A DNA stretch of 64,000 bases, from the NCBI RefSeq assembly GCF_024502345.1, contig NZ_JALDNN010000001.1. One strand, given 5' to 3'. This DNA comes from Escherichia coli. GTDB lineage: Bacteria; Pseudomonadota; Gammaproteobacteria; Enterobacterales; Enterobacteriaceae. A model generated the notes under the pieces. It was not told where the DNA came from, ran no database searches, and saw only the letters and a program-made list of their open reading frames with translations. This document shows positions 13,575-52,230 of the stretch, piece by piece; position 1 is the stretch's first letter, and each line of letters starts with the position of its first letter. The position numbers were made by a program, and so were the translations under genes.

Positions 13575-13797
13575 GTTTGGCGGGAAATATAAAAAAATGT
13601 GAGGCGGCTCGAAACTTAAGGGCTTTTTGTGAATGAACTCACAGGTGCTAAATGAGAATTAAAATCACTCCTGAAAATTATTATTGCCAGCCCATTTATC
13701 ACTTTTTCTCTTTTCTCAAAATCAGTGATTCCTTATCATTATGATAAAGAGTGCCGGAAGGATTAAATATTTGAACGCAATCGTTTAACTACGTTTT

Positions 13798-14376
13798 CTA
13801 AATTTCTGTATACCTTTTCTTCGCTGTAATAAAGTCGTCCGGAGTATCAATATCTAAAATTATTTCTGCATTTTCTATTTCGACGGAATAATGATCTCCC
13901 ATAAGGAGTGCCTGACGCATATTGGTGACATTGGGTCGCTGGATTGCCTGCATCAGGCATGGTTTTGACACTAAAATCGGATGGCCGGGGATGCCATTAT
14001 GGAGTGGCAGTATTGCGCCATCATTTCGTAACGACCAGATTTTTCTAAAAATATCGATGGTGAGGGTTGGCATGTCACCGTGGGTGAGAAAACAATGTTC
14101 TGTTTGCACCGCGGGTACTGCGGCCTTTACTGATGTTAGTAAACCCTGCGCATAATCTGGGTTGTGGATAATAGTGATATTGCTCTGGTTCGCATAACGT
14201 TCGTGCAGTTCATTACCACGATAGCCGGTGACTAAAATAATTCGGCTACAAAACTGCAACGCATTTTTGATACTTGTATCAAGAATTGTTCCCTGTTGCC
14301 AGGGTAACATCATTTTCCATTGCCCCATTCTTGATGATAATCCGGCAGCGGTAATTATACAGTCGATGGCTGACAT
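13798..14376 (-). CDS. mocA: molybdenum cofactor cytidylyltransferase
   Basis: 192 aa ORF; MobA-like nucleotidyltransferase N-terminus (IITAAGLSSRMG). Confidence 0.8.
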   Translation of the reverse strand: MSAIDCIITAAGLSSRMGQWKMMLPWQQGTILDTSIKNALQFCSRIILVTGYRGNELHERYANQSNITIIHNPDYAQGLLTSVKAAVPAVQTEHCFLTHGDMPTLTIDIFRKIWSLRNDGAILPLHNGIPGHPILVSKPCLMQAIQRPNVTNMRQALLMGDHYSVEIENAEIILDIDTPDDFITAKKRYTEI

Positions 14377-47998: not shown

Positions 47999-48066
47999 CT
48001 AAAAAGCCCTGCCAAAAAAATGAAGCGGTAATTATATGCCCGGAAAGCGGCAGGTCAAAGCGATGG

Positions 48067-48756
48067 CTACTGGATCAGAAAATGACGGGCCAGTAGTGCA
48101 CTGGTGAAATTCTTCTTCAAATAAAAGCCGCGTGGCAGCGTCAGAATCCGTTCGCCCCGGGCACCAATGGCTTCGGTAAGCGCTTTCGCATTCGCTGCTT
48201 TCGGTCTTATCTGTAAATATTCCCCGTGACGAGCGGTGATCCGCTCAACCTGACCGAGAACAATCATATCCATTAATTCTTCCCAGTCTTCGCGTAGCTG
48301 TCGGTCTTCCTCTTCATTCGGGCTCCACAGCAACGGGGATCCTACGCGACGCTGCGCCAGCGGGATGCTGCGCTCGCCTTCAACCGGTATCCACAGTACG
48401 CGTTTGAGCTTGTGGCGCACGTGGCTGGTTTCCCAGGTCACCCCGCTATTACCCGTTAACGGGGCAACACAAACGAATGTTGTTTCCAGCGGACGACCAA
48501 GACTATCCACAGGGATAGTTTTAAGTTCCACGCCCAGAGCGGCAAAATCTTGCTCAGGTTTACTCCCTGCGCTGGCACCTAGCCAGATCTCCAGTAACAC
48601 GCCAATCCAGCCCTTATCGCGTTTTAAATTCTCTGGCGTAACCAGCCCGGCAAGTGCCGCCAGTTCTCCCAATGTATAACCAGAAAGTTGCTGTGCTTGC
48701 GCTAACAACTGTTCTTCAGTTTCGGGAGGAGAGAGCAGTGGGCGAGGTTGGGACAT
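48067..48756 (-). CDS. mutH: methyl-directed mismatch repair endonuclease
   Basis: 229 aa; [33 protein letters not shown]... Confidence 0.9.
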
Positions 48757-48944
48757 GTCATGATACCTTGATTAAAAAACAAACAGCAATTATGTGCCGA
48801 ATATTCGCAGTGTAACTTTTTCCACATGTGTTGTTCAATTCTCTGATTTATATTGCTTTTTAGGCTGCCGGTAATCGAGTTGCGCAACACTGCAATAGGT
48901 TTTCCAAATCTGGTCACTGAAAATAAACAGGATCTTACACCATG

Positions 48945-49269
48945 TTATCCACAGAAAGCTGGGATAACTGTGAAAAACCTCCACTACTGTTTCCATTTAC
49001 AGCCTTGACGTGCGATGAAACTCCAGTTTTTAGTGGTTCAGTGCTTAACTTAGTGGCACATTCTGTGGATAAATACGGCATTGGTTGATCTTTCGCCAAC
49101 CCGTAAATGAGAGGTGTGACCTGGGTCACGAATTACTCTTTTTCATTACTCAAATTACATGTAATGCATTGACTAATAATGAATATTTTAAAATGTCTAT
49201 ATCGGGTTTATTCAGAATGCTCCGGGTTTTCCCGTAGTAATTCCGTAGTTCTTCACAACTCTATCCACA
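48945..49269. promoter_or_regulatory. DnaA-box cluster consistent with the DARS2 DnaA-reactivating sequence
   Basis: perfect TTATCCACA on the plus strand (48945..48953), perfect TTATCCACA on the minus strand (49064..49072) and CTATCCACA (49261..49269) within an AT-rich 684-bp non-coding gap between mutH and rppH. Confidence 0.45.
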
Positions 49270-49440
49270 GAAAAGGTGAATAAAAACGGCTATTCACCCC
49301 TTCCTCTGTTTATAACTCTGCACATAACTGTGAGTTATTCAATTGTTATTAGTGTGTAATGCCCTGCAGAGAGTGGTTTACCGTCTTCCTGGAGTATGAA
49401 ACAATCATTCGTATATAAAGCTTTATTTTGAGGTAGTCCG

Positions 49441-49971
49441 GTGATTGATGACGATGGCTACCGCCCAAACGTAGGTATCGTGATTTGTAATCGCCAGGGG
49501 CAGGTAATGTGGGCCCGGCGATTTGGTCAGCACTCCTGGCAATTTCCGCAAGGCGGAATCAACCCCGGAGAATCCGCAGAGCAGGCGATGTACCGTGAAT
49601 TGTTTGAAGAAGTAGGATTAAGCCGCAAAGACGTTCGAATCCTTGCTTCAACGCGTAACTGGTTGCGCTACAAATTACCGAAACGTTTGGTGCGTTGGGA
49701 CACGAAGCCGGTTTGTATCGGCCAAAAACAAAAATGGTTTCTCTTGCAGCTGGTAAGCGGCGATGCAGAAATCAATATGCAAACCAGCAGTACACCAGAG
49801 TTTGACGGCTGGCGATGGGTAAGTTACTGGTATCCGGTCAGACAGGTGGTGTCATTTAAACGTGATGTCTACCGTAGGGTAATGAAAGAGTTCGCGAGTG
49901 TGGTGATGTCACTGCAGGAAAATACGCCAAAACCACAAAACGCATCTGCTTATCGACGTAAAAGAGGTTAA
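49441..49971 (+). CDS. rppH: RNA pyrophosphohydrolase (Nudix)
   Basis: 176 aa, GTG start ([14 protein letters not shown]...); Nudix box [22 protein letters not shown]. Confidence 0.9.
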
Positions 49972-49983
49972 GTCACGCCAATT

Positions 49984-52230
49984 ATGCTCACTCGCCTGCG
50001 CGAAATAGTCGAAAAGGTAGCCAGCGCACCACGCCTGAATGAGGCGTTAAATATTCTGGTTACCGACATCTGTCTTGCGATGGATACCGAGGTCTGTTCG
50101 GTCTACCTGGCCGATCATGATCGACGTTGTTACTACCTGATGGCGACCCGGGGGCTGAAAAAACCACGCGGTCGCACTGTAACGCTCGCGTTTGATGAAG
50201 GGATCGTCGGCCTGGTTGGCAGGCTGGCGGAACCGATAAACCTTGCAGATGCGCAAAAGCACCCCAGCTTCAAATACATCCCCTCCGTAAAAGAAGAACG
50301 TTTCCGCGCGTTTTTAGGCGTACCAATTATTCAACGTCGCCAGTTGCTTGGTGTACTGGTGGTACAGCAACGAGAGTTGCGCCAGTATGACGAAAGTGAA
50401 GAATCCTTCCTGGTGACGCTTGCCACCCAGATGGCAGCTATTCTTTCTCAGTCGCAGTTGACTGCCTTGTTTGGGCAATATCGCCAGACGCGAATCCGCG
50501 CATTACCGGCAGCACCTGGTGTGGCGATTGCCGAAGGCTGGCAGGATGCCACGTTACCTTTAATGGAACAGGTGTATCAGGCATCAACGCTGGATCCGGC
50601 TCTGGAACGCGAACGACTGACCGGGGCGCTGGAAGAAGCGGCAAACGAGTTTCGCCGCTACAGCAAACGCTTTGCCGCCGGAGCACAAAAAGAAACGGCG
50701 GCTATTTTCGATCTTTACTCGCACCTACTTTCGGACACCCGGCTGCGTCGCGAATTGTTTGCCGAGGTTGATAAAGGCTCGGTGGCAGAGTGGGCGGTAA
50801 AAACGGTCATTGAAAAATTTGCCGAACAGTTTGCCGCGCTAAGCGATAACTATCTCAAAGAGCGGGCTGGCGATTTACGTGCGCTGGGTCAGCGATTGCT
50901 GTTTCATCTTGATGACGCTAATCAAGGGCCGAACGCCTGGCCGGAACGTTTCATTCTGGTGGCAGATGAACTGTCAGCGACAACTCTTGCTGAGCTGCCC
51001 CAGGATCGCTTAGTCGGTGTTGTCGTGCGAGATGGCGCAGCCAACTCCCATGCTGCGATCATGGTACGTGCGCTGGGGATCCCTACCGTGATGGGCGCGG
51101 ATATTCAGCCTTCGGTGCTGCATCGTAGGACGCTGATCGTTGATGGCTATCGCGGTGAATTGCTGGTCGATCCGGAGCCGGTACTGCTGCAAGAATATCA
51201 GCGGCTAATTAGTGAAGAGATTGAGCTTAGCCGTCTGGCGGAAGATGACGTCAATTTACCCGCGCAGTTAAAAAGCGGTGAGCGTATAAAAGTCATGCTC
51301 AATGCTGGTTTAAGCCCGGAACATGAAGAAAAACTGGGCAGCCGTATTGATGGCATCGGTCTTTATCGCACTGAAATCCCATTCATGCTGCAAAGTGGTT
51401 TCCCGTCGGAAGAAGAACAGGTGGCGCAGTATCAGGGGATGCTGCAAATGTTCAATGATAAACCCGTCACCTTGCGTACGCTGGATGTCGGAGCAGATAA
51501 GCAGCTGCCTTACATGCCGATCAGCGAAGAGAATCCATGCCTGGGTTGGCGTGGGATTCGCATTACGCTCGATCAGCCGGAGATCTTCTTGATCCAGGTG
51601 CGGGCGATGCTGCGTGCTAATGCCGCTACGGGCAACCTGAATATTCTGTTGCCGATGGTCACAAGCCTCGATGAAGTTGATGAAGCACGCCGCCTGATTG
51701 AACGTGCCGGACGTGAAGTCGAGGAGATGATCGGTTACGAAATTCCCAAACCACGTATCGGCATCATGCTGGAAGTGCCGTCAATGGTATTTATGCTGCC
51801 GCATCTGGCAAAGCGGGTCGATTTCATCTCTGTTGGCACCAACGATCTGACTCAATACATTCTGGCCGTTGATCGCAACAATACCCGGGTGGCGAACATT
51901 TATGACAGTCTTCATCCTGCAATGTTACGAGCTCTGGCGATGATCGCCCGGGAAGCGGAAATACATGGTATCGATCTCCGTTTGTGCGGTGAAATGGCGG
52001 GCGATCCCATGTGCGTGGCAATCCTCATTGGGCTTGGGTATCGCCATCTGTCTATGAACGGACGTTCTGTAGCGCGGGTAAAATACCTGCTGCGGCGCAT
52101 TGATTTTGCCGAAGCAGAAAATCTTGCGCAGCGTAGTCTGGAAGCGCAACTGGCGACCGAAGTTCGCCATCAGGTTGCAGCCTTTATGGAGCGTCGCGGC
52201 ATGGGCGGGCTGATTCGCGGAGGGTTATAG
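49984..52230 (+). CDS. ptsP: nitrogen-PTS enzyme I (GAF domain-containing)
   Basis: 748 aa; N-terminal GAF domain, C-terminal PEP-utilizing enzyme domain. Confidence 0.9.
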   Translation: MLTRLREIVEKVASAPRLNEALNILVTDICLAMDTEVCSVYLADHDRRCYYLMATRGLKKPRGRTVTLAFDEGIVGLVGRLAEPINLADAQKHPSFKYIPSVKEERFRAFLGVPIIQRRQLLGVLVVQQRELRQYDESEESFLVTLATQMAAILSQSQLTALFGQYRQTRIRALPAAPGVAIAEGWQDATLPLMEQVYQASTLDPALERERLTGALEEAANEFRRYSKRFAAGAQKETAAIFDLYSHLLSDTRLRRELFAEVDKGSVAEWAVKTVIEKFAEQFAALSDNYLKERAGDLRALGQRLLFHLDDANQGPNAWPERFILVADELSATTLAELPQDRLVGVVVRDGAANSHAAIMVRALGIPTVMGADIQPSVLHRRTLIVDGYRGELLVDPEPVLLQEYQRLISEEIELSRLAEDDVNLPAQLKSGERIKVMLNAGLSPEHEEKLGSRIDGIGLYRTEIPFMLQSGFPSEEEQVAQYQGMLQMFNDKPVTLRTLDVGADKQLPYMPISEENPCLGWRGIRITLDQPEIFLIQVRAMLRANAATGNLNILLPMVTSLDEVDEARRLIERAGREVEEMIGYEIPKPRIGIMLEVPSMVFMLPHLAKRVDFISVGTNDLTQYILAVDRNNTRVANIYDSLHPAMLRALAMIAREAEIHGIDLRLCGEMAGDPMCVAILIGLGYRHLSMNGRSVARVKYLLRRIDFAEAENLAQRSLEAQLATEVRHQVAAFMERRGMGGLIRGGL

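Follow-up and report, generated by a model that had tools for sequence, protein, structure and literature searches.

The window, that is the whole stretch of DNA that was analysed, comprises 64,000 nucleotides of Escherichia coli and contains a 684-bp gap bordered by the divergently oriented genes mutH and rppH. Downstream of rppH lies ptsP, and the gene order tas-ygdR-ygdQ-mutH / rppH-ptsP agrees with the annotation of both RefSeq and MG1655. The gap is AT-rich, as had been stated in an earlier, sequence-only reading of this DNA (38.3% GC vs 50.9% for the whole window). It is 99% identical to the rppH-mutH intergenic region of MG1655, with nine substitutions, and is present in 5424 of 5426 complete E. 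coli genomes. A 48-aa open reading frame in its centre is annotated by RefSeq as ygdT. An Rfam scan of positions 48000-50200 (E up to 1) returned a chance snoRNA match inside mutH as its sole hit and no RNA gene.

Two perfect copies of the DnaA box TTATCCACA are located in the gap in opposite orientation, about 110 bp apart, and a third box, CTATCCACA, matches at eight of nine positions; all three had been picked out in the sequence-only reading. The 64-kb window as a whole contains three perfect TTATCCACA boxes as compared to 0.39 expected. When up to one mismatch to TTATNCACA was allowed, nine boxes were counted in the gap, where the frequency in the remainder of the window predicts 0.46 (Poisson P ~2e-9). 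In 2000 shuffles that preserved the composition of the gap, the mean was 0.94 boxes and the maximum five. In the window as a whole, boxes with one mismatch are about as frequent as chance predicts (52 vs 50 expected).

Primers and oligonucleotides published for DARS2 (Kasho 2014, supplementary Table S1; Miyoshi 2021, supplement; Frimodt-Moller 2015) were mapped on the window, which they match with no or one mismatch (Table 1). The site names used here follow papers later than Fujimitsu 2009, from the same group and others, and published drawings of DARS2 correspond to the reverse complement of the window. The 455-bp DARS2 fragment is 98% identical to MG1655, from which it differs by eight SNPs. 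None of these affects boxes I-VI, the IHF 13-mers of IBS1-2 or the 21-mer that carries FBS2-3. SNPs are found at 49175 in the 3-bp spacer of the IHF 13-mers, at 49207 adjoining box IV, and at 48896 and 48897 at the site of FBS6.

Table 1. Genes, published DARS2 sites and further sequence elements of the mutH-rppH region (window positions).
Feature	Position	Strand	Sequence	Basis or remark
mutH	48067-48756	-		borders the gap
Gap	48757-49440			684 bp
Promoter-like site for mutH	48789-48826	-	GTTACA-16-CATAAT	consensus scan, prediction only
DnaA-type box	48818-48826		TTTTCCACA	abuts predicted mutH -35
DARS2 455-bp fragment (pOA61)	48852-49306			primers MutH-2 (48852-48870) and MutH-4 (49288-49306)
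Right half of fragment	48852-49072			includes box VI
FBS6 (Fis)	48882-48896	+		substitution primers Ksh-9/10; two SNPs vs MG1655
Box VI triad	48933-48967		TCTTACACC, 3 bp, TTATCCACA, 5 bp, CTGGGATAA	degenerate core geometry
ygdT (48-aa ORF)	48942-49088	+		RefSeq; spans box VI to FBS2-3
DnaA box VI	48945-48953	+	TTATCCACA	perfect; substitution primers Ksh-34/35
Near-invariant 15-mer	48995-49009		ATTTACAGCCTTGAC	55 bp after box VI
FBS2-5 oligo	49051-49102			Miyoshi 2021; 0 mismatches
DnaA box V	49064-49072	-	TTATCCACA	perfect; inside FBS2-5 oligo
Crucial 21-mer with essential FBS2-3 (Fis)	49073-49094			bounded by MutH-24/25 (delta21) and MutH-11/17
Minimal DARS2	49074-49306			deltaRight, MutH-11
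GATC	49087-49090			inside 21-mer
Palindrome	49115-49130		TGTGACCTGGGTCACG	TGTGA-N6-TCAC; right arm overlaps FBS1
FBS1 (Fis)	49124-49138	-	GAGTAATTCGTGACC	oligo FIS-1U and subFBS1 primers
IBS1-2 (IHF)	49162-49190			convergent 13-mers; centre 90 bp from core, 92 bp from FBS2-3
IHF 13-mer	49162-49174	+	TAATGCATTGACT	one mismatch to TAAnnnnTTGATW
Replaced in subIBS1-2	49169-49184			primers Ksh-16/19
IHF 13-mer	49178-49190	-	TAAAATATTCATT	one mismatch to TAAnnnnTTGATW
DnaA box IV	49208-49216	+	TTATTCAGA	substitution primers Ksh-30/31
DARS2 core	49249-49283			35 bp deleted in deltaCore; flanked exactly by MutH-14/15
Core box III	49249-49257	+	TTCTTCACA	imperfect
Core box II	49261-49269	+	CTATCCACA	one mismatch
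Core box I	49275-49283	-	TTATTCACC	imperfect
Elements beyond the 455-bp fragment	49307-49337		TGTTTATAA, TGTGAGTTA	fixed distances, 49 and 18 bp
Promoter-like site near rppH	49377-49405	+	TTTACC, 17 bp, extended -10 TGaAACAAT	read from sequence, inference only
rppH	49441-49971	+		borders the gap

The 35 bp of the core are also flanked exactly by the chromosomal deletion primers of Frimodt-Moller 2015. Read in the published orientation, from 49283 to 49249, the core has the structure TTATTCACC-TTTTC-TGTGGATAG-AGT-TGTGAAGAA (boxes I, II and III), with boxes I and II head-to-head across a 5-bp spacer and boxes II and III head-to-tail across a 3-bp spacer. DARS2 box II has been stated to carry one mismatch; the mapped box II agrees with this and is identical to the eight-of-nine box mentioned above. 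The two perfect boxes, in turn, are boxes V and VI and lie outside the catalytic core. That the consensus-perfect boxes differ from the functional core is a correction of some value.

The two IHF 13-mers are 3 bp apart, as published. IBS1-2 is essential for DARS2 activity and has been described as about equidistant between the core and FBS2-3, a description which the measured distances of 90 and 92 bp fit. The Fis consensus GnnYAnnnnnTRnnC is matched exactly in the gap by FBS1 only, the other Fis sites being placed via substitution primers. FBS1 is footprinted by Fis and non-essential, since subFBS1 is fully active, and FBS6 is likewise non-essential. The crucial 21-mer is identical to that of MG1655. 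Box IV is dispensable, as are boxes V and VI for the stimulation of initiation from a plasmid (Kasho 2014), and the right half of the fragment is unneeded in plasmid assays. Box V seeds ATP-DnaA oligomers which displace Fis, a negative feedback (Miyoshi 2021).

The element in the gap is almost certainly DARS2, the second DnaA-reactivating sequence of the E. coli chromosome, which has also been placed 'in the mutH promoter' (Hansen & Atlung 2018). The sequence-only reading had made the same assignment. It is borne out by the 99% identity to MG1655 and by published primers which delimit 455 bp inside the gap; in the alignment to DARS2, boxes I-III and the IHF and Fis sites were all located there, and the core does not lie elsewhere. 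No evidence contradicting this identity was encountered. The locus is an already known element that was correctly recognised from raw sequence, and the practical value of the analysis is a base-accurate map of all published DARS2 sites in the window. Sequence identity and the position of every mapped site are established. Because the sequence is identical to MG1655 DARS2 at the essential sites, we infer that the allele of this strain would also release ADP from DnaA. DARS2 is the main device for regenerating active ATP-DnaA, by which replication initiation in E. coli is timed to growth phase and cell cycle.

Conservation of the locus was followed in nine genera (E. coli, Salmonella, Citrobacter, Klebsiella, Enterobacter, Serratia, Yersinia, Photorhabdus and Pantoea). 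To this end genomes were scanned for the core pattern, and the loci of Salmonella, Klebsiella and Citrobacter were added through their MutH proteins; DARS2 loci of Vibrio, Aeromonas and Pasteurellaceae lie outside this comparison. In the scan, the core adjoins mutH and/or rppH in at least five genera (Enterobacter, Serratia, Yersinia, Photorhabdus and Pantoea), and uvrB and/or bioD, i.e. DARS1, in at least 12 loci.

Distances between landmarks were measured in ungapped sequences. From box VI to CAGCCTTGAC there are 55 bp in all nine genera, and from CAGCCTTGAC to box V 63 bp in eight of the nine (62 in Yersinia). Box V is separated from core box II by 199 bp, the core from TATAAC by 49 bp, and TATAAC from TGTGAGTTA by 18 bp, each in 9/9 genera. 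The spacing is thus fixed from box VI to 54 bp past the core, save for 1 bp in Yersinia. The outer distances are less constant, at 188-229 bp to mutH (eight genera; the Pantoea locus ends before mutH) and 176-251 bp to rppH. Little of the sequence between the landmarks is conserved, with for example one of 22 and two of 39 positions invariant.

All nine positions of boxes V and VI are invariant in the nine genera, and in each core box seven to eight of the nine; in a comparison of six genera, 27 of the 35 core positions do not vary. None of the nine positions of box IV is invariant, and FBS1 is unconserved too. A TG-T-GATCTTT motif of the 21-mer is conserved across genera. The mismatched position of boxes I and II is shared by all nine genera; box II begins with C or A, never with T. 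According to a 2025 result, swapping DARS1 boxes into DARS2 makes DARS2 hyperactive and causes over-initiation, and the conserved mismatches of boxes I and II fit this observation. Conservation of the core-IBS-FBS spacing has already been noted in published work; no mention that it also covers the right half and 31 bp past the fragment end was found in the literature examined.

Two elements at fixed distances are located in these 31 bp. TGTTTATAA contains TATAAC, and its reverse complement, TTATAAACA, is a box with eight of nine matches. Eight and seven of nine positions are invariant among the nine genera in TGTTTATAA and TGTGAGTTA, respectively. Both are kept in Photorhabdus, where rppH is not adjacent. 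In this genus a rearrangement has affected the rppH side, where a gene of 553 aa in convergent orientation ends at the TGTGAATTA element; up to this element the scaffold is kept beside mutH.

Around box VI, three 9-mers form a triad with a degenerate version of the core geometry, which reads TTATCCCAG-CTTTC-TGTGGATAA-CAT-GGTGTAAGA in the published orientation. Apart from the core it is the only match to the DARS-core pattern in the window (up to three mismatches; 0.03 expected). The 9-mers TCTTACACC, TTATCCACA and CTGGGATAA are invariant at 6/9, 9/9 and 7/9 positions among the nine genera, and the 3-bp and 5-bp spacers at 0/3 and 1/5. This pattern of invariant 9-mers and variable spacers points to protein-binding sites, for which the triad 9-mers are candidates. 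The outer two are poor DnaA boxes (6-7/9), and substitution of box VI alone was without effect on a plasmid (Kasho 2014). A role of the triad as a mutH promoter (-10 TAAGAT, minus strand) was considered and dropped, as no conserved -35 accompanies it.

Between boxes VI and V lies a near-invariant 15-mer with 14 of 18 positions invariant in the nine genera; Pantoea has a variant with A/C at position 5. It contains TTGACG, which has been proposed as the rppH -35 (promoter TTGACG-18-TTTAGT; Shimada 2014, PMC3946193). This assignment of the 15-mer was rejected because the -10 is unconserved and none of the nine genera has an A at its position 2. Nor did the 15-mer fit sigma-32 or sigma-54 promoter elements or sites for IHF, TyrR or FNR in a comparison by eye.

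The inverted repeat regarded in the sequence-only reading as a possible nucleoid-protein site had been misquoted as ending in CACA, at 49113-49128; the true sequence is the TGTGACCTGGGTCACG palindrome listed in Table 1. In one respect the suggestion holds, as the right arm lies inside the Fis site FBS1, but the palindrome as a whole matches the CRP core TGTGA-N6-TCACA at nine of ten positions (one mismatch to TGTGAnnnnnnTCACA). The same sequence, assigned to rppH/mutH, is listed in a 2026 Footprint-seq preprint as a previously undescribed in vitro CRP site with an inferred Kd of 2.7 nM (PMC12871828, Table 1). E. coli, Salmonella, Citrobacter, Klebsiella and Enterobacter retain GTGA-N6-TCAC, the spacer being variable, and Serratia, Yersinia, Photorhabdus and Pantoea lack it. 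The palindrome is located between the essential Fis and IHF sites, in their loop. A literature search for DARS2 and CRP together found no paper linking them.

Conservation in the centre of the gap might reflect a small protein, if ygdT were a real coding gene. It is annotated by RefSeq/PGAP and in the MG1655 record (b4610), and its frame is intact, with 48 codons, in E. coli and Salmonella. However, the frame lacks a start or contains stops in seven of nine genera, and the start is ATG in only four of nine. There is a stop at codon 40 in Citrobacter, a CTG start in both Klebsiella and Enterobacter with stops at codons 24 and 12, respectively, no ATG and stops in Serratia, and a retained ATG followed by stops in Photorhabdus; in Yersinia the frame has no ATG and is frameshifted, and in Pantoea there is no start codon. 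The ATG of ygdT coincides with the variable 3-bp spacer of the box VI triad and its TGA lies inside the FBS2-3 21-mer, and box VI, the 15-mer and box V account for the conserved 'residues'. Comparison of E. coli with Salmonella revealed 14 nonsynonymous and four synonymous codon changes, distributed 6/10/9 over the codon positions, without third-position bias and hence without a coding signature. NCBIfam has no YgdT family, and gene callers omit ygdT in Salmonella, Klebsiella and Citrobacter. Mentions of a 'YgdT' protein that were checked in the literature turned out to be misspellings of YdgT/Cnu, and most of the full-text matches listed were unrelated to this gene. Conserved coding is therefore very unlikely to account for the gap centre, and ygdT is probably not a real gene. 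The sequence-only reading had seen no protein-coding explanation for the region; it had overlooked the RefSeq annotation and was effectively right.

Less probable still is that the cluster mainly serves the divergent promoters of mutH and rppH-ptsP as an operator or as a titration site, at which DnaA would regulate transcription or just be captured, with nucleotide exchange not being its main role. Hansen & Atlung 2018 cite the original isolation of this region (Roth & Messer 1998), in which it was obtained as a 'mutH promoter' fragment with high affinity for DnaA. Sigma-70 promoters have been proposed here for mutH and rppH (Shimada 2014, PMC3946193), the gap contains promoter-like sites, and the TTTTCCACA box adjoins the predicted mutH -35. 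At the promoter-like site near rppH, a block GTGGTTTACCG...GTGTGAAACAATCA is conserved in eight of nine genera. Boxes V and VI, too, speak for it, being perfect, deeply conserved and unneeded for reactivation on plasmids. Against this, deletion of the 35-bp core alone lowers ATP-DnaA and perturbs initiation (delay/desynchrony) in MG1655, and ADP is released from DnaA in a purified system of DARS2 DNA, IHF and Fis. The proposed rppH -10, moreover, is unconserved. The two roles are compatible, so that the right half could at most have an operator function in addition. A chance cluster of DnaA boxes, for which the AT-richness of the gap (38% GC) and the chance rate of one-mismatch boxes over the window might speak, is refuted by shuffles that never produced more than five boxes, as against the nine observed, and by boxes V, VI and a core that are invariant or nearly so in nine genera while the DNA around them has diverged.

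With the element taken as DARS2, its mode of action in this strain would follow the published mechanism (Kasho 2014, Sugiyama 2019, Miyoshi 2021, Kasho 2025). ADP-DnaA would bind to the three imperfect core boxes, where the protomers on boxes I and II would meet head-to-head via AAA+ Gln208 and box III would add a head-to-tail partner. IHF at IBS1-2 would bend the DNA sharply, stabilised by negative supercoiling, and the bend would bring Fis at FBS2-3, some 180 bp away, onto the DnaA dimer at the core. ADP would then be released, and apo-DnaA would leave and rebind ATP. Activity would be limited by Fis to exponential or fast growth and by IHF to the pre-initiation stage. Rising ATP-DnaA would finally oligomerise from box V over FBS2-5 and evict Fis, whereby DARS2 would be turned off.

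The comparison of genera suggests that selection at DARS2 preserves more than plasmid assays have revealed, and it could bear on IHF release and on the control of DARS2 by growth conditions. A doubtful though conceivable reading is that the unit selected in Enterobacterales is a rigid scaffold of about 400 bp (approximately 48933-49337) and not the minimal DARS2 of 233-256 bp, and that reactivation of DnaA on the chromosome may be gated or tuned by the box VI triad, the 15-mer and the in vitro CRP site. Tuning could occur by a second DnaA assembly on the triad, or by cAMP-CRP, which could couple DARS2 to carbon supply by competing with or re-bending the Fis/IHF loop. The scaffold, the triad and the CRP site in the IHF/Fis loop are offered as leads, not as conclusions.

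As compared to DARS2 of E. coli K-12, the element is the same at the same locus, with boxes I-VI, IBS1-2, FBS1-6 and the 21-mer at the same spacing, and the sole difference consists of the eight strain-level SNPs, none of them in an essential site. The DnaA-oligomerisation region of oriC is alike in having high-affinity boxes flanked by low-affinity ones at 2-3-bp intervals together with IHF and Fis sites, and the box V / V-a-c array of DARS2 behaves like an oriC sub-array (Miyoshi 2021). Unlike oriC, DARS2 lacks a duplex-unwinding element and does not act as an origin, and the head-to-head box pair of its core is absent from oriC. Like DARS2, datA is a non-coding chromosomal DnaA-box cluster with an essential IHF site which is timed by IHF and acts on the nucleotide state of DnaA. 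In contrast to DARS2, it promotes ATP hydrolysis on ATP-DnaA oligomers, i.e. it works in the opposite direction, and has neither a Fis requirement nor a head-to-head box pair. DARS1, located between bioD and uvrB, catalyses the same reaction, ADP release from DnaA. Its core in MG1655, TTATCCACT-ATTCC-TGTGGATAA-CCA-TGTGTATTA, has the same geometry (box I, 5 bp, reversed box II, 3 bp, reversed box III), and the DARS2 core compared with it shows no mismatch to the shared geometry pattern. The two elements differ in that DARS1 has a perfect consensus box II, does not need IHF or Fis and is about 100 bp long, whereas box II of DARS2 is imperfect and about 230-256 bp are needed.

The spacing of the DARS2 landmarks was compared between 48933-49337 of the window and eight loci from other genera (L023, L071, L072, L095, L109 and L124-L126). 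The distances from box VI (48945-48953, plus strand) to box V (49064-49072, minus strand), the core (49249-49283) and TGTGAGTTA were the same in nine Enterobacterales genera, except for 1 bp in Yersinia. The DNA between these landmarks is variable among the nine genera, and the distance of mutH and rppH from them differs between genera. The fixed-spacing unit is larger than the published minimal DARS2 of 233-256 bp and extends beyond the end of the cloned 455-bp fragment (48852-49306).

Positions of DnaA-box, Dam, CRP-type and conserved elements in the window
Feature	Position	Strand	Sequence or remark
Box VI triad	48933-48967		9-mer, 3 bp, box VI, 5 bp, inverted 9-mer
GATC of the triad	48931-48934		
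Near-invariant 15-mer	48995-49009		ATTTACAGCCTTGAC; A/C at position 5 in Pantoea
GATC at Fis sites FBS2-3	49087-49090		
CRP-type site in DARS2	49115-49130		near consensus
DnaA box (8/9)	within 49307-49337	minus	TGTTTATAA; includes TATAAC
CRP core palindrome, ygfK-mocA intergenic region	13628-13643		TGTGAATGAACTCACA; perfect
DnaA box in mocA coding sequence	14163-14171	minus	perfect; third of the window
DnaA box, one mismatch	14147-14155		TTATGCGCA; 7 bp from the perfect box in mocA

Immediately beyond the 455-bp fragment, at 49307-49337, both TGTTTATAA and TGTGAGTTA are kept across genera. In Photorhabdus cinerea, rppH is not the neighbouring gene, and a convergent gene of 553 amino acids stops at the TGTGAATTA element; despite the absence of an adjacent rppH, the TGTTTATAA and TGTGAGTTA elements still lie beside the core (L109, 3449-3475).

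At the other end of the unit, box VI is the centre of a degenerate version of the DARS-core geometry, in which the 9-mers are conserved across genera while the spacers vary; the start codon of the annotated ORF ygdT coincides with the variable 3-bp spacer. The 15-mer is located 55 bp from box VI in every genus compared (n = 9). It was considered as a promoter element (-35 TTGACG) and rejected, as no conserved -10 was found alongside. Compared by eye with the sites of sigma-32, sigma-54, IHF, TyrR and FNR, the 15-mer matched none of these proteins.

Both GATC sites are conserved across genera. An extra GATC follows the one at FBS2-3 within about 15 bp (columns ~383-395 of the cross-genus alignment A3) in the other aligned genera except Photorhabdus and Pantoea; E. 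coli does not have it. The CRP-type site within minimal DARS2 overlaps the non-essential Fis site FBS1 and has FBS2-3, which is essential, on one side and the essential IHF sites on the other. CRP is reported to bind it in vitro at 2.7 nM (2026 preprint, PMC12871828), and no link of the site to DARS2 was found in the searchable literature.

The DARS-core box pattern was also encountered in other genera. Legionella nagasakiensis carries at least eight copies in a single genome (including loci L056-L062). Because several of them have near-identical flanks (…TTATCCACAAAATCTGTGGATAAAYCTGTGARCAG…), they look more like copies of a dispersed repeat than like individual regulatory sites. Among the matches listed, Pseudomonas genomes showed the pattern at 14 or more loci (L006, L008, L011, L018, L021, L024, L025, L038, L042, L053, L065, L074, L077 and L097), with TTGTGGATAACCTTGTGAACAG common to all and two flank contexts recurring among most; neither uvrB, mutH nor rppH was detected near these listed loci. 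They may represent DARS-like elements in a genus that lacks mutH.
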